NCBI GenBank assembly: GCA_002347685.1
Contig: DDWS01000026.1
Coordinates: 26,995-90,994, forward strand
From: Syntrophaceae bacterium UBA2280
GTDB taxonomy: Bacteria; Desulfobacterota; Syntrophia; Syntrophales; Smithellaceae
Direction: 5' to 3'
Length of the DNA stretch: 64,000 nt
Shown one piece after another: positions 8,786-60,479 of this stretch. Position 1 is the stretch's first letter; every line of letters begins with the position of its first letter. Made by a program: the position numbers and the translations under genes. The notes beneath the pieces are model-generated. The model searched no databases, had not been told where the DNA came from, and saw only the letters and a list, made by a program, of their open reading frames with translations.

Positions 8786-10174
8786 TTATGGCCTATTCGT
8801 GTTTTGCTCGTACTTCTCCAGCTTTTTTCGAAGGGTCTTGCGCGTAATGCCTAAACGGCGGGCAGCTTCGCTTTTGTTTCCGCCGCATACGGTCAGCGCA
8901 TCCAGAATGCTTCTTTTTTCCACTTCCTCAAGCGGCAGATTCGGAGACAAAACAAACGGACGGGCTTCATCTGCGGTCGGATCATCCATCGCCAGAAGCG
9001 TCATATCCTCCACATCCAGATATTCGGTGCGCGACAAAACCACTGCCCTTTCGACGGCATTCATCAGTTCCCGGACATTGCCGGGCCAGGCGTAGCGCAC
9101 AAGTTTCTGCATGGCCTGAGGGGTAAAACCCGCGATGGACTTGAAATTCCTGCGGGAAAACATCGCCAGGAAATGCTGCGCCAGAAGCGGGATATCTTCC
9201 GTCCTTTCACGCAGCGGCGGCACATGCAGCGCCACCACGTTGAGCCGGTAGAATAGATCTTCCCGGAAACGCCCCTCCCTGATTTCTTTTTGCAGATCCT
9301 TGTTGGACGCGGCAAGCACGCGGACATCGACTTTGAGCACATCCGACCCGCCCACGCGGGTCAGCTCTCTTTCCTGCAAAACCCGCAGGAGTTTCACCTG
9401 CATCGCGGAAGACATTTCACTGACCTCATCTAAAAAAATGCTCCCGCCGCCGGCCTGGAGAAATTTTCCTTCCCTTCTGCGGTCCGCGCCGGTAAACGCG
9501 CCTTTTTCATGACCGAACAGCTCCGACTCCAGAAGCGTTTCTGTCAGCGCTGCGCAGTTGATTTTAACAAAGGGCGCCGCTTTCCGATGGCTGTTGGCGT
9601 GTAGCGCATTGGCGATGACCTCCTTGCCCGTCCCGGACTCCCCGGTGATCAGAATCGTGGCTTCCGTCGCGGCCACCTGCTCCACAATGTCCAGAAGCCT
9701 GGCCATTGCGGTGCTCTGACCGATGATGCTCTGCCGGTCGATTCTTTCCCCGAGTTTTTCTTTGAGATATTCATTTTCTTTTTTCAGCGAACTGTGCTCC
9801 GTCGCCCGGGCAATTCCGATTTGCAGTTCGTCAAAATCAAGCGGCTTGGTGAGATAATCATACGCACCTTTTTTAAGTGCGCTGACCGCTGTTTCCACCG
9901 AAGCGTAAGCCGTCATGAGGATTACCGGAATCGAGGGATTGATCTTACGGACCTGCTCGAGGGCTTCGATCCCGGAAACCTTCACCATCCGGATGTCCAT
10001 CAGAATCAGATCAAAAGCCCGTCTGCGGATTTCTTCGATCGCGCCCGCACCGTCATCCGCCTCAAAGGTCTGATAACCCCAGCCTCCCAGAAGTTTTTTC
10101 AGCATCAGCCGGTGAGCGGCATCATCATCCACAATTAAAATGTCGAGTGCGTTTATCATTGCTTCATCCCTCAT
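8786..10174 (-). CDS. sigma-54-dependent Fis-family response regulator (NtrC/ZraR-like)
   Basis: Receiver (ILIVDDD), AAA+ Walker A GESGTGKE, GAFTGA loop, C-terminal HTH (AARRLGITRKTLRKKL). An ATGA overlap couples it to the upstream kinase. Confidence 0.9.
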   Translation of the reverse strand: MRDEAMINALDILIVDDDAAHRLMLKKLLGGWGYQTFEADDGAGAIEEIRRRAFDLILMDIRMVKVSGIEALEQVRKINPSIPVILMTAYASVETAVSALKKGAYDYLTKPLDFDELQIGIARATEHSSLKKENEYLKEKLGERIDRQSIIGQSTAMARLLDIVEQVAATEATILITGESGTGKEVIANALHANSHRKAAPFVKINCAALTETLLESELFGHEKGAFTGADRRREGKFLQAGGGSIFLDEVSEMSSAMQVKLLRVLQERELTRVGGSDVLKVDVRVLAASNKDLQKEIREGRFREDLFYRLNVVALHVPPLRERTEDIPLLAQHFLAMFSRRNFKSIAGFTPQAMQKLVRYAWPGNVRELMNAVERAVVLSRTEYLDVEDMTLLAMDDPTADEARPFVLSPNLPLEEVEKRSILDALTVCGGNKSEAARRLGITRKTLRKKLEKYEQNTNRP

Positions 10175-11856
10175 TTTTCAGACCGGGGGAAACCCAGCAC
10201 GACTTTTGTGCCGGCCCCCGCCCGGCTTTCGATTTGAACCCTTCCGCCGTGCGCGTCCATGATTTTCTGCACGACTGCCAGCCCCAGCCCTGTTCCCGCC
10301 GGTTTTGACGTGAAATACGGATCGTAGATCCGTGGCATGTTTTCGCTGCTGATCCCCTCGCCCGTGTCGGCAATCACCACTTCGAGATCATCTTTGCGGA
10401 TTGAGGAGTCGACGGACAGCCGTCCGCCATCCGGCATGGCGGCCAGGGCATTCAAAAGAATATTCAGCAAAACCTGTTTCACGCGATCAGGATCAACGTC
10501 GACCGGAGGCAAACCATCCTCCGCCCGCACTTCAATCCCGATGGATTTTTCCCGCGCCTCGGCGGCAATCAGCCGGATGGCGTGGCCCACCAGATCCGCC
10601 ATGTTCGCCCGCTCAGTTTTCAATTCCAACGGCCGGGCAAATTCAATGAGCTGGCTGATCACGCGGTTGAGCCTTTCGGTCTCGGCGATCATAATGTCCG
10701 CGGTTAGCTCATCGTCGGGATGGCCGGAGAGCCTTTCTTTGAAATATACGGCAAAGCCCCGGATGGAACTGAGCGGATTCCTGATTTCGTGCGCCACACC
10801 CGCCGCAAGCGATCCGATGGCTCGCAGATGCCGGCTGCGGGCAACTTCCTTTTCCATCCGCCGCATGGCCGTCACATCACGCGCCAGCAGAATTCTGCCT
10901 TCGTTTCCATCATCATCCGTGAAGGTCGCCGCGACGACCTCCCAGATGTTCGTTTCACCCCGATGGTCTGTCAACTGCACATCGCGTTCGATTACCCCCG
11001 CTCCTTCATGGACATCTTCCAACAACCGCCAAAGGGCCGTCGGCAGCACAACGTCTGCCTGCCTGCCTGCAGCGTCCGGACAGGCGCCTTCAAAAAACTC
11101 CTGTGCTTTTTCATTGCAGGCGGCAATGCATCCCTGTGGATCAACCGCAATCAGACCGATCGGTAAATGGTTGACCAGTGCTTCGGAGAAAACCGTGATG
11201 CGCGATAAGGAGGAACGCGTCAGCCGATACGCCTGCACCAGAAAAAGCGACACAATGGCCAGCGAGCCGATCAGCGCAAGAATCAGTGCGACAAACAGCG
11301 TCCGGAAGGTATCTTCACGCGACGCGCTTTCAATTTTACTCATGTCGAAACCGACAAACACGATCATCGGACTTTGCCCCTCTTCAACCATCGGGACGCG
11401 CCACGGAGAAAATCCCCGATAGACCTCAAACGTTCCGGCACCATCGGGATTGGCCGTTTGCCGCCACGCGATTTTTGTGCTGTCGGCAAGCCTGACCGTG
11501 CCGAGATCCAATCCGTAATGGAGGCCCAGCATCGCCGGTTCGCTGTCCGCCAGAATCCGCCCGCGAGAATCCGTCACAATCATATAATCGATATCCGGCT
11601 GCTGAGCGGTCTCCATCAGAAGCTTCTGAAGATAGAATTCCCCGCCTTCAAAATCTCCGCGATATTGCAAACCCGCTTCAAAAGACCGGATCAACGTCGT
11701 GCCCTTTTCGACAAAAAGCATCTGGGCCTGATTTTTCCGCCCCTGAAACTGCGCAAACATCATCACACTCAGGATTCCGGCTAAAACCGCAAGCGCGCTT
11801 ACGGTCACCCAGACCGAAAGATCAAAGCGGATTTTTTTCTTTTTGATTTCCTTCAT
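10171..11856 (-). CDS. membrane sensor histidine kinase (ZraS/AtoS-like)
   Basis: H-box AHEIRNPLSSI, G-box GTGLGLAVV, and a TM helix after MKEIKKKKIRF. Start trimmed from 11946 to the ATG at 11856. Confidence 0.8.
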   Translation of the reverse strand: MKEIKKKKIRFDLSVWVTVSALAVLAGILSVMMFAQFQGRKNQAQMLFVEKGTTLIRSFEAGLQYRGDFEGGEFYLQKLLMETAQQPDIDYMIVTDSRGRILADSEPAMLGLHYGLDLGTVRLADSTKIAWRQTANPDGAGTFEVYRGFSPWRVPMVEEGQSPMIVFVGFDMSKIESASREDTFRTLFVALILALIGSLAIVSLFLVQAYRLTRSSLSRITVFSEALVNHLPIGLIAVDPQGCIAACNEKAQEFFEGACPDAAGRQADVVLPTALWRLLEDVHEGAGVIERDVQLTDHRGETNIWEVVAATFTDDDGNEGRILLARDVTAMRRMEKEVARSRHLRAIGSLAAGVAHEIRNPLSSIRGFAVYFKERLSGHPDDELTADIMIAETERLNRVISQLIEFARPLELKTERANMADLVGHAIRLIAAEAREKSIGIEVRAEDGLPPVDVDPDRVKQVLLNILLNALAAMPDGGRLSVDSSIRKDDLEVVIADTGEGISSENMPRIYDPYFTSKPAGTGLGLAVVQKIMDAHGGRVQIESRAGAGTKVVLGFPRSEK

Positions 11857-11941
11857 CCTTACACTCCGGCATGACCTGGATAGAATAAACCCGTATGGAT
11901 ACGCTAACTGGGTACCTATTATCCACCCTATGGGGATAAAA

Positions 11942-11958
11942 GGCAAATTCTATTTGCC
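11942..11958. promoter_or_regulatory. perfect palindrome GGCAAAT-N3-ATTTGCC, candidate activator site upstream of the sigma-54 promoter
   Basis: Read directly from the sequence. It lies about 45 bp upstream of the -24 element in the divergent HK/zraP-like intergenic region. Confidence 0.35.
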
Positions 11959-12001: not shown

Positions 12002-12017
12002 TGGCACAGGCTTTGCT
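12002..12017 (+). promoter_or_regulatory. sigma-54 (-24/-12) promoter
   Basis: TGGCAC-AGGCT-TTGCT matches the TGGCAC-N5-TTGCW consensus exactly. It is about 50 nt upstream of the Spy/CpxP-family gene and divergent from the NtrC-type two-component operon. Confidence 0.8.
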
Positions 12018-24617: not shown

Positions 24618-25388
24618 CTACGAAAATTTCGTAAAATCCGGTTTTCGTTTCTCAAAAAACGCGCTGAAGGCCTCCCCGGCTTCCGGTGACGAAAGCATAT
24701 CGCTGAAAAAGCTGTTTTCCAGCAGGATTCGGGATTTCACCATTTCTGCCTGAGCTGATTTCATAAGCTGCTTGGTCGTACGCAGCGACGACGCGGGAAG
24801 CGCGGAAAGTTTGGCCGCCTGCCCGCAGGCAAATTCCAAAAGCTCATCGTGGGGCAGCACGCGGTTGACCAGGCCCATCTCATGGGCTTCGTACGCGGAA
24901 AAGAATTCACCGAGGAATAATTTTTCCGCGGCGCGCTGATACCCGACAATCTGCGGAAGCAGCAGGCTGGAGGAAAACTCCGGACACAGGCCCAGCGGCG
25001 AGAAAGGCATGGAGAACTTCGCCTCTTCGGAGGCGTAAATCAGATCGCAGTGCAAAAGCATCGTTGTGCCGATGCCGATGGCCGCGCCGGCCACCGCCGC
25101 GATAACGGGCTTGGTCAAGGCGATGAGGCTGGCCATGAACTGCGCCACCGGCAGGTCGCCGACATTCGCGCGCGCCTTGTGGTTCGCGAAATCGACCAGG
25201 TCATTGCCCGCCGTGAAAATGTCCGGCCGGCCGCAGAACAAAACCACGCGCATCGCCGGATCGTCCTGCCCGTCCTTGAGCGCGTCGGCCATCATCTGAT
25301 ACATTCCGGAGGTAATCGAGTTTTTCTTTTCGGGACGATTGAATTCAATCGTCAGAATGCCGTTTTCCTTCTTCGTGAGAATATGCAT
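24618..25388 (-). CDS. enoyl-CoA hydratase/isomerase family protein
   Basis: 256-aa crotonase fold (FTAGNDL, AAVAGAAIGIGTT). Confidence 0.85.
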   Translation of the reverse strand: MHILTKKENGILTIEFNRPEKKNSITSGMYQMMADALKDGQDDPAMRVVLFCGRPDIFTAGNDLVDFANHKARANVGDLPVAQFMASLIALTKPVIAAVAGAAIGIGTTMLLHCDLIYASEEAKFSMPFSPLGLCPEFSSSLLLPQIVGYQRAAEKLFLGEFFSAYEAHEMGLVNRVLPHDELLEFACGQAAKLSALPASSLRTTKQLMKSAQAEMVKSRILLENSFFSDMLSSPEAGEAFSAFFEKRKPDFTKFS

Positions 25389-28632: not shown

Positions 28633-28773
28633 AAATCCTCCTGTGTTTTCTAAGTTTTTTGACGATAAAATCGTTTATGCGCTTAATGGGGAACGTCTTT
28701 CACCTAAACGGTCGTTTTAATTATTTTGGAGCGATATCATACCTGAACGGCCTCGTCAAGGACGAAGGTGGGA

Positions 28774-28904
28774 ATCAGAAGTCGGAGATCAGAAGTTTTT
28801 TTGTAAAGGGAGATTTAGGGGGATACAGAGTACTTCCCCCTTTTCTAAAGGGGGATTGAGGGGGATTATTGAAGTTGGTTACAATCTCCCCTAACCCCTC
28901 TTTT
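28774..28904. repeat. composite intergenic repeat (heptamers ATCAGAA/GTCGGAG plus three copies of an AAAGGGGATTNAGGGGGAT-like module)
   Basis: Direct module copies at 28805-28824 and 28847-28866, and an inverted copy at 28884-28904. The heptamer words recur in inverted form at 31057-31075. Confidence 0.8.
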
Positions 28905-28960: not shown

Positions 28961-28996
28961 AAAAAAATCCCCGGAAGGTTTGCGCCCTTCCGGGGA
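28961..28996 (-). terminator. rho-independent terminator of the porin gene
   Basis: The minus strand reads TCCCCGGAAGGG-loop-CCTTCCGGGGA followed by TTTTTTT. Confidence 0.8.
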
Positions 28997-29029
28997 TAAA
29001 TTAACTTTGGAACAACAACTTGCTGAAGC

Positions 29030-30436
29030 CTAGAAGGTCAGGGTCAGCTTGTTGATGATCAGGTAGTTGTTCTCAAGATCCTTGGTCTCACCAATACCAG
29101 CCGCGACACCCTTGTAGTAATTACCGGTGAACAGGTAACCGGCGCCCAGCATGTAGGACAGGTTGTTGGTGATTTTGTAGGTCGCGGTCACATCCACTTC
29201 CCAGCCGTAGTCACGATCCACATGAGCAACGGTAAGGGTCTTGTCCGCATGGGCATAAGCTACCGCCAGCCCGATATCGAGTTTCTCGATCGGACGGACA
29301 CCGGCGCGAACCTTCGCGAAGTAGGCGTTGCTCAGCACGCCGACTGCCGTCGTGCCGTCGTAGGCCGCCTGTGCGCCTGCCCAGTAGTTCAGGTCGTTGT
29401 TGAACAGGATCAAAGTGGGATTCCAGTCAAGACCGCCACTCAGCAATCCGCCTTCCATTTTGTCAGCCGTTCCGGGATCGTTTCCGGATACATAGGCCAG
29501 GGTACCACCGACATAGAACATGCCTAAATCGGCAACCGCGTCAACATACGCGCTCAAATTGTTGATGTCGATATCATCGCCAAGCCCCGCTGCCTGAGGA
29601 ATCGGGGGAAGTAAATAATAGGGCGCATCGTCCCATTTGATCTTGCCGTATGCCCAGTACACCTGAGCCTCGAGGGCCACGGGGCCAACCTTGGCTTTCA
29701 CGTACGGGGTCAAAACGCCGACGTTCATCACGTAACCGCCGTCATCGAACAGAGGACCAAACCCACTACCCTGCATTGCACCTCTGTTGCCCGCTTCGCG
29801 GATGTACTTGCCCAGCAAGCCGACCTGTCCGGTCTTCCAGGCAAACACAGCAAAAGCGGTGTAGAAGCTGGAATCCCTGTCGGAAGCCAGTGTGTCGTTG
29901 ATTCTTGTGTAGCTTCTTTCATTGTTCTTTCCGGTCTGGAGTCCGACAATGACCGGGCCCTGTTTGATGGTGTACGTCACTTTACCGGTCGGCAGCGAGC
30001 TGTCGCCGAATTTGGTTCCCCAGGCGCCGTCGATCATGTAACCGGCGGAGAACATGCCGATGGGGGATACGTAGGTCAGATAAGCCAGATCGATCGCGAT
30101 GTTTTCGTTTTCAGCGCGGGTACCGGCGGACAGGATGTCATTTGTCGTTTCCAGGGGCACATCGGATCTTGCGGCGCCCCAGGCTCTTTCCATAATGTCC
30201 ATGCGGGTGGTCAGCATGAGCCCCGGAGAAACGGTGAACACGGTGTTCAGGCGCAGTCTCTGGAAATAGAACGCTGTGCTGGGATTACCTTCATCTTTGA
30301 CTAACCCGGTTTTGTCCATGTACAGACCACCGGCAACAAATTCGCCGCTGAATTTCACGTCGACCTGCGCAAAGGACGTCGTGCTGAAGGCTACAATCAG
30401 CCCCAGTGACAACAAAACTAACCAAAATCTCTTCAT
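29030..30436 (-). CDS. putative outer-membrane beta-barrel porin
   Basis: Signal peptide MKRFWLVLLSLGLIVAFSTTSFAQ, alternating amphipathic Gly/Tyr-rich strands, and a C-terminal LTLTF ending in Phe. Confidence 0.7.
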   Translation of the reverse strand: MKRFWLVLLSLGLIVAFSTTSFAQVDVKFSGEFVAGGLYMDKTGLVKDEGNPSTAFYFQRLRLNTVFTVSPGLMLTTRMDIMERAWGAARSDVPLETTNDILSAGTRAENENIAIDLAYLTYVSPIGMFSAGYMIDGAWGTKFGDSSLPTGKVTYTIKQGPVIVGLQTGKNNERSYTRINDTLASDRDSSFYTAFAVFAWKTGQVGLLGKYIREAGNRGAMQGSGFGPLFDDGGYVMNVGVLTPYVKAKVGPVALEAQVYWAYGKIKWDDAPYYLLPPIPQAAGLGDDIDINNLSAYVDAVADLGMFYVGGTLAYVSGNDPGTADKMEGGLLSGGLDWNPTLILFNNDLNYWAGAQAAYDGTTAVGVLSNAYFAKVRAGVRPIEKLDIGLAVAYAHADKTLTVAHVDRDYGWEVDVTATYKITNNLSYMLGAGYLFTGNYYKGVAAGIGETKDLENNYLIINKLTLTF

Positions 30437-30653
30437 TTCTTCCTCCTAAAATATAGATGGGAGTTAAAAATTTTCCGCCTTTTTTCCCGAAACGGGCATT
30501 CCGATGAGAAAAGGCGCCTCTTGTTTCGCACACCCCTGACGATCAAAGACCCGTCACAGGATATACGGCGCGAAAGCTAACAGAGACCTGCCGGACTTGT
30601 CAAGATATTTTTTCCCGTCAGCCACCACCGCTTTCGCTTGCCCGCCATTTACA

Positions 30654-30668
30654 GCAATATAAGTGCCA
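30654..30668 (-). promoter_or_regulatory. sigma-54 (-24/-12) promoter upstream of the porin gene
   Basis: The minus strand reads TGGCAC-TTATA-TTGC, an exact consensus match. It implies a 5-prime UTR of roughly 200 nt before the porin ATG. Confidence 0.75.
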
Positions 30669-30759
30669 GATTCACCCTTTGCGGCAACATCCCCCGGCCT
30701 TCCCGGCCGCAGGTTGGCCGCTTTTCGCTTGAGCCCTTTTTTCTCCTTCAGCCGTTTAA

Positions 30760-30774
30760 ACGATATATAATCGT
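30760..30774. promoter_or_regulatory. candidate enhancer (UAS) palindrome ACGAT-ATATA-ATCGT
   Basis: Centred about 100 bp upstream of the -24 element. It uses the same half-sites as the palindromes at 56791 and 60371. Confidence 0.5.
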
Positions 30775-30990
30775 AATTATTTATATTTTACAAAAATCGC
30801 CGTGCATCATCCACCTGAATGATCCGGCAACTGGAATGACAATCCGACATGAAACGGCAACACCTGCCATCCTTAAAATTGGATCTCCACTGAAAAATCA
30901 GTCGCTTCATGTATGGATTTTTTCACACACCAGCCACTGAAAGCTCTCAACATCGCCTGAAAAAGTGGGGGAAAAGACACAGGGGAATTG

Positions 30991-31298
30991 GTGGATGGTG
31001 AATAGTGAATAAAAGAGGTCAGAAGTCAACGATCAGAGATCAGAGGGTTCAGTAAGACCTCCGACTTCTGATCACTTCGCCCATCGCCCAGTGTCAATAT
31101 TGCTGTGTCATTTCGAAGGAGTCGAGACGACTGAGAAATCCAGGATTTCTCCCTACGGTCGAAATGACAAACGGGGGTGGGTCGAAATGACACGACTTGC
31201 TTAAAGCAAATGTTGCCAGTTTACGGTTGCCCTTTCCTTGATCCTTGATCCTTGATCCTTGAACCTCCGACCTCCGACCTCCGACCTCCGACCTCTGA
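30991..31298. repeat. composite intergenic repeat: multiple heptamer arrays flanking a nested palindrome
   Basis: Left arrays: GTGAATA x2, ATCAGAG x2, CGCCCAK x2 and others. Core: GTGTCATTTCGA...TCGAAATGACAC (31105-31193) with a central GAGAAATCC-AGG-ATTTCTC hairpin. Right arrays: CCTTGAT x4 and CCTCCGA x4-5 (31236-31298). Confidence 0.85.
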
Positions 31299-56788: not shown

Positions 56789-56802
56789 AACGATATATCG
56801 TT
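56789..56802. promoter_or_regulatory. candidate enhancer (UAS) palindrome AACGATATATCGTT
   Basis: Perfect 14-bp palindrome centred about 85 bp upstream of the -24 element. The 14-mer ACGATATATCGTTA is repeated at 60371. Confidence 0.55.
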
Positions 56803-56854: not shown

Positions 56855-59800
56855 TCAGTCGGCATCAGTATCTCCGGTCAGATAGCTCGCTTTTCGCGAT
56901 ATACCCAGCTTCTTCATTCGCGAAAAGAGTGTATTGGGATGAATGTCGAGAATTTCTGCTGCGCCACCCTGACCCGTTACCTTGCCGCCCGTTGCCCTGA
57001 GAACTTCCAGAATATGGTTTAGCTCGTTTTCCCTGAGGCTCATATGGGCATCATGAGATAAAGAATGCCTGCTGGCCAGTTCCGGCACCCGATAAAAGGG
57101 GCCGTTGCTCAATATCACCCCTCTCTCGATGACATTTTCAAGCTCCCTGACGTTTCCCGGCCAGTCATAGGACATGAGTTTTTCCATTTCCGGCGGTGAA
57201 ATTTTGTCCAGGGGCTTATTGCACTTATTCGCGTAGAGCCCCAGAAAATACCGGGCGAGAAGCGGCACGTCTTCTTTTCTGTCCCGGAGACTGGGAACAT
57301 GAATGGGAAACACATTGAGGCGATAATAGAGATCCCTGCGGAAACGGCCCTTTTTTACTTCCTGTTCCAGATTCCGGTTCGTGGCGGCCAGAAGACGAAA
57401 ATCCGACTGAATGATGACGTCGCCGCCGACCCGCACGAATTCCCGGCTTTGCAAAACCCGCAGGAGCTTGACCTGGATATCCATGGAAATATCCCCGATT
57501 TCGTCGAGGAAGATAGTTCCCCCGTTGGCAAGCTCGAATCGCCCGATGTGGCGCGCCGTCGCTCCGGTAAAAGCCCCCTTTTCATGGCCAAAAAGTTCAC
57601 TGGAAATCAGACTCTCAGAAAGAGCGCTACAGTCGACCCGGATAAAAGGCTTCTCCGCCCGGTGGCTGTGATGATGGATCGATCGGGCTACCAGCTCCTT
57701 GCCGACGCCTGTCTCGCCCAGAATCAAAACCGTCGCATCCGTCTGGGCAACCTGTTCTGCCTGGCTGAACACTTTCTTGATGGCCGGACTTTGACCCACG
57801 AAATCCTCGAAATGAATGGTTTCGAGGTATTCTTTCTCATAATGCTCTTTTTCAAGTTGCTGTTTTTCATACAGGTTTTGCAGGGCTTCCCAAGCTTCCG
57901 CGTTATCCATGGCAATAGCGGCCTGGGTGGCAAAGTAGTTGAGAATTTCCAGATCCGACTCCTTAAAAGCGCTGCGAAACAGCCGGTTGTCGTGATACAA
58001 AACGCCGGTTACTTTATTGCGCATTTTAAGAGGAACGCAGATACAAGACCGAATGGCGCCTCCGCCGGTGGCTTGATCGGAATTCCGGTGGTCGAGTTCC
58101 ATGATGTGTCCCTTGCCTGTCCTGGCCGTTTTTTCGATCAGCCTCATGGACCTGTCAAAATGGGGCACGGTGACATCTTCAGACGTGAGATTTTTCGCAG
58201 CCTTTAGAATGACTGTCTCGGCTCTTTCCCCTTCCAGAACGAAAATGGCACCCCGCTCGGCGCCGGTTATCCTGTTGATGGCGGAAATGATGCGCCTGGA
58301 AAGCTCCCTGTAATCCCGTATTGTGGTCAGCTCCTGGCTTAACCGCAATATTTCATCGAGCAGGTTTCTCCCGTAGCGCAGATCCTTCACAAGCGGCCTG
58401 ATGTCGCCGGGAACCAGAACCTCGTTGAAAGCATAGAGCGTCCGTGCCGCCGGTTCGGCGTACTCGATGTATTCTTTCTCGCTGCCCATCCGCAGATATT
58501 CCCTGGCCACCTCCAGCTTCGACTTGGCCAGTTCAATCTGATGCCCGCAGGTTTCCAGGTCTGCCATGGATTGCTTGAGGGTTTGCAGAATGTCCCTGCT
58601 TGAATGGCCCGAATTCCGCATCATCAGCGCCTTATGCCGGAAGGCAACGCCCTTCATGAAAAGATTACCGCTCTCGAGGGAATAGCGTATTTCATCGTCC
58701 AGGGACAAACCCTCCATCCGCGGGAACGATCCGTCTTCCATGTCCTTGCAGATCATCATCCACAAAGCGGTAAACTTCACGGTCATTTGGGACTGCACAC
58801 TGAGATCACAATATTCCTTCAGGTTTGATATCGCCTTGGCAGGGTCACCCGCCTGGTGATGCGCGTAGCTCAGCAAAGCCAGCGCTCCCAGCCGGGCATA
58901 AATGCTTTTGCTTTTCTTGATTTCATCCCAGGATTCTTCAATGCACGAAATGGCATCCTCGGGGCGGTGCAGCTCCAGCAGCAAATGTCCGAGGGATACT
59001 CCTGCCAAGCCGGCCATGGACAAGTTGCCAATGCTGCGGCTGCGGACTCGAATGGCATCGAGCATACCCAGGCCCTGCGAATACAAACCGGTATGGCCAA
59101 GACAGACGCCCGCCGTCAGAGCGGCCAACAGGGGCAGCCGGTTCTTTGGAAACTGGTCTTCCACTTCGGGTACGAGAGTTTCGTAAATTCGGACAACCTC
59201 TTTATAGCGGCCAGACCAGTAATGAAAAAAAATACCGAAAATCGTCGCTGATTTCTGGATGGCCGGGTCATCGATTGTTCGGGCCAACTCCCATCCCTGC
59301 CTGAAGTGGCTTAACGCAGAACTGTACCGGGAGGAAAGCCACTGGCTTTTTCCCAGATGCATTTCAAGAAAACCGATCGAACCCGAATCGCCGCAGGATT
59401 CGGCGCGGCGGATCGCTTCCCGGAGGATCGCGATGACGCGGTTCGGATTATCACTGTCCGTGGAAACCTTCGCATACTCAAGGGTCGCTTCAATGAAGAG
59501 ACGGTCTGCTTCAGGCGTCGCAAGTTGCCTGAGGTCATCGATGGCCTTGTCGTAATAAAGCCTCGCTTCCTCATCCCTGAACTGCCTGCGGTGAATGTTG
59601 CCGTTTTCAATCAGAAGGCGGCATCCGGCATCATCATTGGAAATATGCAGCAGATGCCGGGCAACCTGTCTTGTTTTTTTTGAGTCTTCGGAGAGATCTC
59701 CGAGAAGCAGCCTGGATATATTCCGATGAAGGGATTCTCTGTCGGCGGGCGGGATGGCCGACACCAGCTTGTTTTGTTCTGCAGCATCAATGAAGGAAAA

Positions 59801-60019
59801 ATCCGTCAGGTTATTCCGGGAAAGCCAGCCTTTTTCAACACCGGATTCCAATGCGGCAAAAATGACCGACGCCTTCTTCCCCGTCAGTTCCTGCAACCAA
59901 TCGATGTTGAATTCACCCTCAAACAGAGCGGCCCGGGACAAAACAAACAGGCGCCCTTGAAAATCCTCTTCAGAGAGATGACCGTTTATAATCATTGATT
60001 CCCTCATTGCCTGCAGCAC
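56855..60019 (-). CDS. sigma-54-dependent transcriptional activator with a large N-terminal helical-repeat region and a GAF domain (no receiver domain)
   Basis: 1054 aa. Roughly the first 550 aa are unassigned and helical. A GAF-like region follows ([22 protein letters not shown]...). AAA+ Walker [15 protein letters not shown] loop, C-terminal Fis-type HTH ([21 protein letters not shown]). Confidence 0.85.
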
Positions 60020-60370
60020 TCAAACGACTGCATTCAACCAAAAATACCTGCGGTTCTTTCGTAAACCCCCGCTTGGCAAATTCCTAAACGGCTGTACAGA
60101 AAAGGGGCCGTCTGATCGGGTTGATCTTTGCTTTCTTCCCCTGCATCACGATTTCTCGTCTGCAGCACACGATTTGACACTATGGCACAGGCTCCAATTC
60201 CTTACATCAACCGGATAGCAGATTCTTCGCCACCCGGTTTGAAGCACATTATCATATCATCGGCGCAATTCCAAGACTTCCCTGGAAGCCGTTTTTACCC
60301 ATCCTCCCTATGACGCTTATTTCTGAATGAACCCAACCCGGGTAATAAAATACGACATGGGGGTTATTTT

Positions 60371-60419
60371 ACGATATATCGTTACCTCTTTTCAGAAAGC
60401 ACGATGCCCTGGATCGTGC
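60371..60419. promoter_or_regulatory. two candidate enhancer palindromes: ACGATATATCGT and GCACGAT-N7-ATCGTGC
   Basis: Positions 60371-60382 and 60399-60419, which is 45-95 bp upstream of the -24 element of the decarboxylase-beta promoter. Confidence 0.55.
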
Positions 60420-60463
60420 CAAAAGGCTCTATATAATTAACGCTTGTTTCAATATTTCACTCA

Positions 60464-60479
60464 TGGCATAGTGATTGCA
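60464..60479 (+). promoter_or_regulatory. sigma-54 (-24/-12) promoter of the decarboxylase beta-subunit operon
   Basis: TGGCAT-AGTGA-TTGCA. The track ORF start at 60475 lies inside this promoter and is therefore rejected. Confidence 0.75.

Follow-up and report, generated by a model that had tools for sequence, protein, structure and literature searches.

The sigma-54 promoters glnAp2 (with NtrC) and nifH (with NifA) have upstream activator sites, the NifA site being TGT-N10-ACA, and the 133-nt leader of E. coli ompA carries a stabilising hairpin at its 5' terminus and a second hairpin near the ribosome-binding site. These systems frame the present case, which concerns a far less accessible group of bacteria. 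Members of Smithella, which are uncultured or difficult to grow, have a key part in the syntrophic degradation of propionate and alkanes, and to our knowledge almost nothing is known about the control of their envelope permeability. In the present study, we analysed an outer-membrane porin gene and its upstream region in a 64,000-nucleotide stretch, hereafter the window, of Syntrophaceae bacterium UBA2280 (GTDB family Smithellaceae; assembly GCA_002347685.1, contig DDWS01000026.1, positions 26,995 to 90,994 of the forward strand). A sequence-only reading of the window had placed this gene under an exact sigma-54 promoter and, through a palindrome about 100 bp further upstream, in the regulon of a sigma-54 activator encoded 26 kb away. 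We consider it likely, judging from comparison with related loci, that the porin is transcribed from two tandem promoters, P1 and P2, into a structured leader, and that the palindrome is most probably a chance feature and not an enhancer of the distant activator. The features on which this argument turns are the following.

30910 to 30930, minus strand: degenerate remnant of an upstream site (site A), GTGTGTGAAAAAATCCATACA, against GTGTGTTAAAAACAACAC in relatives, at the same offset of about -260 from P1 (anchored comparison)
30760 to 30774, no strand assigned: palindrome ACGAT-N5-ATCGT, reading ACGAT-TATAT-ATCGT on the minus and ACGAT-ATATA-ATCGT on the plus strand
30653 to 30668, minus strand: sigma-54 promoter P1, TGGCAC-TTATA-TTGCT, with TGGCAC at 30668-30663 and TTGCT at 30657-30653 (sequence reading)
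30574 to 30603, minus strand: sigma-70-type promoter P2, with -35 TTGACA at 30603-30598, extended TG at 30582-30581 and -10 TAGCTT at 30579-30574
30527 to 30567, minus strand: leader hairpin hp1, starting at the predicted P2 start (single-sequence folds)
30476 to 30516, minus strand: leader hairpin hp2, with invariant apex AAUGCCCGUUU and loop UGCCCG at 30498-30493, about 30 nt before the ribosome-binding site
30442 to 30447, minus strand: Shine-Dalgarno sequence AGGAGG of the porin (sequence reading)
29030 to 30436, minus strand: porin gene, 468 aa, ATG at 30436 (list of open reading frames)

The sigma-54 motif reported earlier is indeed present on the minus strand at that place. P1 lies in the spacer, 232 nt before the porin ATG and pointing toward the gene, with GG and GC 12 nt apart, and its transcription start is predicted near 30642, which would give a leader of about 206 nt. 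As a mere count the core motif is unremarkable (the window has three exact copies of TGGCAC-N5-TTGC, and the 3.87-Mb genome has ten against about seven expected), and all three window copies stand in spacers directly upstream of same-strand genes. Among related porin loci, TGGCAY-N5-TTGCT is conserved in 14 of 14, at 218-242 nt before the ATG or, in one locus with an insertion, at 340 nt, and the five-base spacer and the flanks vary while the core stays. Because it is kept at a constant distance from the ATG in these 14 loci and also in the nearest metagenomic relative, we regard P1 as a genuine, evolutionarily conserved sigma-54 promoter. No P1 was found in porin paralogs outside this subgroup, and the alignments show the putative promoter to define a subgroup of porins beside PilZ and beta-CASP genes, conserved across at least 14 species. 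The genome holds the corresponding machinery, with one rpoN (a single Sigma54_DBD match) and about 30 activators (Sigma54_activat matches).

Downstream of P1 stands P2, composed of TTGACA, 18 bp including the extended TG, and TAGCTT, with an A-rich UP-like tract upstream; a consensus promoter scan missed it, its -10 element matching TATAAT at only three of six positions. The predicted start near 30567 would yield a leader of about 130 nt. TTGACA-N15-TGnTAnnnT was found in 13 of the 14 P1-bearing loci, with a variable 15-base spacer, and across these loci P2 sits 53-68 bp downstream of P1 (in the window, P1 is 65 bp upstream of the -35 element). Distant family members that lack P1 and are about 41-54 % identical have it too, 162-186 nt ahead of the ATG. 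Since these distant members still have P2 without any sigma-54 promoter, P2 would be the ancestral promoter and P1 an addition in one porin subgroup, and the comparison shows P2 to be a predicted sigma-70-type promoter common to the Smithellaceae porin family. The sequence-only reading had also remarked on an unusually long 5' untranslated region of about 200 nt that could carry extra regulation. That length agrees with the predicted P1 leader and is largely explained by the internal, family-wide P2, while the extra regulation finds candidates in P2 itself and in the hairpins hp1 and hp2. Both start sites, as well as the use of P1 in the window's lineage, are predictions.

Within the leader, hp1 is predicted from single-sequence folds, and in such folds this long 5' hairpin forms in most relatives although its arm sequences differ; RNAalifold on a MAFFT alignment returned no consensus structure. 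Covariation analysis, suggested earlier as a check on the untranslated region, shows support for the predicted hp2. Across 23 distinct sequences, pairing holds in 90.6 % of cells, whereas shuffles give 80.8 % (none of 500 is as high) and slid controls no more than 68 %, and compensatory changes occur in 8 of the 13 pairs, with many G-U pairs. A covariance model of hp2 (R1) gave 35 hits in 22 of 41 genomes, one to four per genome; they belong to the organism's own genus except for one weak hit elsewhere, nearly all of them stand 25-30 nt upstream of porin genes, and one corresponds to the window genome's own porin paralog (G000:C21:5541-5600). A search of Rfam 15 gave no credible hit at E <= 10 in the leader and promoter region (30380-31000), and hp2 looks like a hitherto undescribed RNA motif, specific to porins of the genus, and is a candidate new cis-regulatory RNA. 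The GGAGG of the Shine-Dalgarno sequence that follows is invariant in an alignment of 13 related loci.

In the mechanism that we propose, the sigma-54 promoter P1 and the sigma-70 promoter P2 downstream of it would feed one structured leader. P2 would provide a basal, high level of porin expression, P1 would add a conditional boost through an activator, and hp1 and hp2 might act on mRNA stability or translation in the manner of the E. coli ompA leader. A bolder version can be put forward tentatively, and we lean slightly against it for now: hp2 may be a new, genus-specific cis-regulatory RNA recognised by a dedicated trans-acting protein or small RNA that coordinates all porin paralogs post-transcriptionally, layered in one paralog under a sigma-54/sigma-70 double promoter whose enhancer turned over in this lineage. 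It is the invariance of the hp2 loop AAUGCCCGUUU that suggests a specific partner.

The upstream region of the related loci points to such a turnover. In these loci, site A, GTGTGTTAAAAACAACAC, which has the motif TGT-N10-ACA, lies at about -258 from P1, and site C, TGTGGTAAAAATAGACACA, at about -184; site A, site C or both are present in 11 of the 13 other P1-bearing loci, several of which have an additional weaker site between the two, and an AT-rich tract at -135 to -90 accompanies P1. Sites A and C are confined to loci that have P1. Further copies of site A might have led to the ancestral activator, but each genome has the site essentially at the porin promoter alone. The porin spacer of the window holds no TGT-N10-ACA, and the degenerate sequence GTGTGTGAAAAAATCCATACA occupies the position of site A. 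The anchored comparison thus shows the two putative activator sites to have decayed in the window's lineage.

With sites A and C missing only in this lineage and P2 intact and family-wide, P1 might have become an orphan here, never activated and serving only as a binding site for the sigma-54 holoenzyme, either silent or modulating P2, so that all porin mRNA would come from P2. The fact that sigma-54 holoenzyme forms stable closed complexes without an activator would allow for this. The window and the nearest relative, however, both have perfect -24 and -12 elements, and at the species level the closest porins are only about 63-66 % identical; over such a distance a 10-nt motif that had no use should have decayed. 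We therefore hold an orphan P1 to be very unlikely and keep to the reading in which both tandem promoters contribute, while the question of what stands upstream of P1 in this lineage leads to the palindrome.

The centre of the palindrome, at 30767, is separated by 99 bp from the T of TGGCAC and by about 125 bp from the start predicted near 30642; the distance of roughly 100 bp given by the sequence-only reading was right, and it falls in the range that characterises the activator regulon (about 80-105 bp upstream of the -24 element). As for its frequency, the window has a single exact ACGAT-N5-ATCGT and the genome has two, against about 3.7 expected. Of 61 related genomes, 9 contain ACGAT-W5-ATCGT and 5 contain the reversed control pattern; in these relatives ACGAT-W5-ATCGT never stands beside a suitably placed sigma-54 promoter, and it is missing from all the other activator-bearing genomes. 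The palindrome is therefore no more frequent than background, and it stands out solely by lying upstream of a sigma-54 promoter. It is situated within an AT-rich tract (about 30758-30803) that relatives share at the same position; the 12 related loci that were scored have an AT content of 0.58-0.80 at -135 to -90, and the window has 0.78. The sequence-only reading had itself named absence of the palindrome from orthologous porin promoters as an outcome that would tell against it, and when looked for in all 13 other P1-bearing loci, including that of G025 (L030), the ACGAT...ATCGT dyad was absent. Furthermore, the AT-rich tract gave no match to the consensus of IHF with one mismatch or fewer in the window or in 10 of 13 relatives, and a search of 30669-31000 for inverted repeats with 6-nt seeds found none.

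The proposed activator and its own sites provide the proper standard of comparison.

56855 to 60019, minus strand: sigma-54 activator of 1054 aa with TPR-GAF-AAA+-HTH_8 architecture (Pfam, NCBIfam and orthologs)
56790 to 56801, no strand assigned: canonical 12-mer ACGATATATCGT, spacing 2, a comparator outside the porin unit
60371 to 60382, no strand assigned: second canonical 12-mer ACGATATATCGT, also a comparator

Measured from start to start, the first 12-mer precedes the sigma-54 promoter of an ABC-importer operon (56712-56698, minus strand) by 78 bp, and the second is 93 bp upstream of TGGCAT-AGTGA-TTGCA (60464-60479, plus strand), which precedes the OAD-beta gene; they are centred at about -84 and -101 from these promoters, and ACGATATATCGT occurs nowhere else in the window genome (G000). 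Close orthologs of the activator were found only in G008, G019, G025 and G037, with sensor regions 48-52 % identical in the first three. In G000, G008, G019 and G025 the exact 12-mer adjoins the activator gene, in seven exact copies that all have spacing 2 and lie 78-108 bp from correctly oriented sigma-54 promoters. Across 61 relatives it occurs in seven genomes, with one or two copies each, and wherever its context was checked (G008, G019, G025 and G005) it stands beside the activator gene. The regulon of this activator appears to be local, with the spacing of 2 fixed, and the comparison shows a putative recognition sequence, the fixed 12-mer, that has no counterpart at the porin. The half-sites of the porin palindrome do match those of the activator locus, as had been stated, but they are separated by 5 bases where ACGATATATCGT has 2.

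Several side observations concern this activator locus. L034 (G019) and L035 (G025) each have two tandem copies of the 12-mer, spaced by exactly 18 bp, ahead of variant promoters aGGCAC-N5-cTGCA; in L033 (G008) the same 18-bp spacing separates an exact copy from a degenerate one (ACGGTATATCGG). The 455-bp spacer between the divergent activator and OAD-beta genes (60020-60474) holds six ACGAT half-sites and, at about 60148 and 60169, two direct repeats CACGATTT 21 bp apart. A 7+7 dyad, GCACGAT-N7-ATCGTGC, at 60399-60419 of this spacer is not conserved in the nearest relative. Outside the window, G000:C63:3841-5370 is a paralog of the activator's sensor region, 29 % identical and with three stop codons, probably a pseudogene.

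The nearest relative, found in metagenomes, has a porin 72 % identical to that of the window (protein search); PilZ and beta-CASP genes adjoin this porin on its contigs as well, and the 546 nt upstream of it are 93 % identical. It keeps P1 (TGGCATTTATATTGCT), P2, hp1 and hp2, and its porin dyad is broken, reading ACGAC-TATAT-ATCGT (T to C at window position 30770). The same sample, 3300037608, holds an activator 99 % identical to that of the window; there, both 12-mers and both sigma-54 promoters are intact, although the divergent spacer is only 92 % identical, and the non-canonical dyad ACGAT-N7-ATCGT (60401-60417) is broken too. A flexible half-site spacing, with N2, N5 and N7 all used by the activator, was considered and rejected, the N7 and N5 dyads being broken in the nearest relative and both N2 sites intact. 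With one substitution in each broken dyad, this is modest evidence that only the spacing-2 site behaves as if under selection, but it accords with all that the related activator and porin loci show.

These results speak against what the sequence-only reading had proposed, namely that the palindrome is a functional enhancer for the activator at 56855-60019 and the porin the outer-membrane entry step of a regulon for uptake, CoA-transfer and decarboxylation. The palindrome has the wrong spacing when set against all seven exact 12-mers beside the activator gene, it is absent from the 13 other P1 loci, and it is broken in the nearest relative, which keeps the activator with its 12-mers; the 12-mer, for its part, was never seen away from the activator gene where its context was checked. 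Nor do the two loci go together as had been expected, close orthologs of the activator being present in four relatives only and the P1-bearing porin in at least 13 other genomes, many of which have no close activator ortholog. The one genome in which both orthologs are noted, G025, has a porin that carries sites A-C and no ACGAT dyad. For the palindrome to act as an enhancer, it would have to have been captured recently, in this lineage alone, in place of the ancestral sites that were lost.

Some observations nevertheless weigh against our reading and in favour of such a capture. The palindrome has half-sites identical to those of the canonical site, together with A/T flanks and an all-A/T spacer, and it is centred at -99 where the distal canonical sites are at about -100 to -102. 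Between -60 and -330 of P1 no other dyad was seen, and outside the activator locus no further ACGAT-type dyad stands close to a sigma-54 promoter. P1 itself has kept a perfect consensus in the window despite the loss of the ancestral upstream sites, which implies that some activator still acts on it. The single substitution in the dyad of the nearest relative is weak evidence, for with 5 substitutions in 267 nt the chance that at least one half-site base is hit is about 17 %, and the porin and activator contigs of sample 3300037608 are presumed to come from one organism. In addition, an 18-strand channel with a fold like that of the carboxylate-specific OccK would suit organic-acid uptake. Taking both sides together, we regard an enhancer for the distant activator as unlikely, and a chance feature of a conserved AT-rich tract as the most likely account of the palindrome.

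There is yet another way in which the dyad could be functional. ACGAT-N(0-20)-ATCGT is enriched in the window, with seven observed against 1.6 expected and 0 of 100 shuffles reaching seven, and two such sites flank the porin unit, the second being ACGAT-AAA-ATCGT at 28662-28674, 30-42 nt upstream of the ATG of a thiolase gene. The dyad might then be the operator of a different ACGAT-recognising regulator, perhaps shared with the thiolase operon, and the porin would be coupled to beta-oxidation genes instead of the activator locus; the porin locus L007, a related one, indeed keeps the thiolase downstream. On the other hand, the two spacings differ (3 against 5), no candidate regulator was found, and the porin dyad is not conserved in the nearest relative. 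The enrichment itself also loses weight, in that three of the seven window sites belong to the activator locus and one, ACGAT-N8-ATCGT at 25335-25352, is a by-product of coding sequence because it lies within the codons of the conserved enoyl-CoA hydratase motif LTIEFNRP (from the translation). We hold an operator of this kind to be very unlikely, and a chance dyad upstream of the tandem promoters continues to be the account that we prefer.

Turning to the gene product, the porin unit is completed by these features.

28967 to 28997, minus strand: intrinsic terminator 3' of the porin, a 12-bp stem followed by a T-run (terminator scan and sequence)
Porin protein: signal peptide MKRFWLVLLSLGLIVAFSTTSFA, followed by QVDV, and C-terminus ...LTLTF (read from the translation)

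Because of this strong terminator, the porin appears to be monocistronic. That the gene encodes an outer-membrane porin, as had been read from the sequence, is upheld. A Sec signal peptide and a C-terminal aromatic residue (Phe) are both present, and the N-terminal 125 residues match NCBIfam NF033939 (DESULF_POR1, "outer membrane homotrimeric porin") with an E-value of 7e-14, a match confined to the N-terminus whose 51 bits are far under the 250-bit cut-off. The match to Pfam BBP2 (PF07642) is weak, with 17 bits against a cut-off of 26.2, and a sequence search of the PDB with the porin gave no match. An AlphaFold2 model, built from 19 sequences, consists of a signal helix and 18 strands (pLDDT 80-94 in the barrel strands, overall mean 66), and the top Foldseek matches are the 18-strand channels AlgE, Campylobacter MOMP and OccK/OpdK, with probability 1.0, TM 0.5-0.64 and sequence identity 10-14 %. 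The model thus supports an outer-membrane beta-barrel channel with a predicted 18 strands.

The family to which it belongs is placed in Smithella/Smithellaceae and is multi-copy, with four paralogs in the window genome and up to 13 in relatives. Nine of the best-matching loci in other species of the genus have PilZ, beta-CASP or thiolase flanks in common with it. Peptide-pattern scans of metagenomes and genomes for the porin returned nothing above 59 % identity, and contigs with an identical porin from five samples had identical upstream DNA as well, hence were uninformative.

Two side observations arise from the alignment with the nearest relative. The differences between the two porins are concentrated in a few segments with large insertions and deletions, likely surface loops, while the barrel strands, promoter and leader are at least 93 % identical; divergence concentrated in this way would be expected under diversifying selection on exposed loops, for example by phage or predator pressure. 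Additionally, tandem arrays of heptamers (GATCAGA, TCCTTGA and ACCTCCG) occupy 31031-31295, between the PilZ gene and the porin promoter region, with another at 28849-28867. The block of about 220 bp is absent in the nearest relative, and for this reason we take it to be an insertion or expansion in the window strain.

The window and its genome contain other sigma-54 units. The activator at 56855-60019 had been named as the nearest one, but another, an NtrC/AtoC/ZraR-like response regulator at 8786-10174, is closer to the porin, at about 19 kb; it has no ACGAT-type palindromes. The open reading frame upstream of it (10171-11946) may encode its kinase, and a divergent exact sigma-54 promoter (12002-12016, plus strand), with dyads of its own, TTATCCACCCTATGGGGATAA and GGCAAATTCTATTTGCC, precedes an open reading frame of 166 aa. 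In the genome there are about 15 sigma-54 promoters of the subtype TGGCAGG-N4-TTGCT, mostly in spacers, on contigs C28, C53, C64, C66, C68 and others, six of them clustered within 40 kb on C28 (about 271-310 kb), and these may form a single large regulon.

The P1/P2 arrangement, the P1-specific enhancer sites and the porin-specific leader motif amount to testable regulatory parts for major channel proteins in a group of organisms of this importance. The negative result on the regulon also has its meaning, since it takes the porin out of the inferred organic-acid regulon, which therefore stays a compact local unit. Moreover, it cautions that common half-sites with different spacing are insufficient evidence for a shared enhancer.

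In comparison with known systems, P1 resembles the glnAp2/NtrC and nifH/NifA type in its GG/GC core at -24/-12 with correct spacing, and its relatives likewise have dyad sites 185-260 bp upstream with an AT-rich tract between, site A even fitting TGT-N10-ACA. It differs from that type in two ways: the upstream sites are lost in the window's lineage, and a strong sigma-70 promoter that serves the same gene stands 65 bp downstream of P1. The predicted leader is like that of E. coli ompA in its length of about 130 nt, with hp1 at the predicted 5' end and hp2 about 30 nt before the Shine-Dalgarno sequence; the two leaders, however, have no sequence relationship, and the loop of hp2, AAUGCCCGUUU, is invariant. 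Among proteins, the porin model shares its 18 strands with AlgE, Campylobacter MOMP and OccK/OpdK, but at a sequence identity of 10-14 %, and the porin matches the Desulfovibrio homotrimeric family NF033939 over its N-terminal 125 residues, at a score far under the cut-off of that family. Lastly, the Pseudomonas enhancer-binding protein CbrB binds at oprD and at an aromatic-compound-specific porin (PMC6296734), which provides a precedent for sigma-54 activators that bind close to substrate-channel genes. CbrB is a global regulator, and the proteins and the organism are not those of the case described here, whereas the activator proposed for the Smithella porin fails the tests applied to it.

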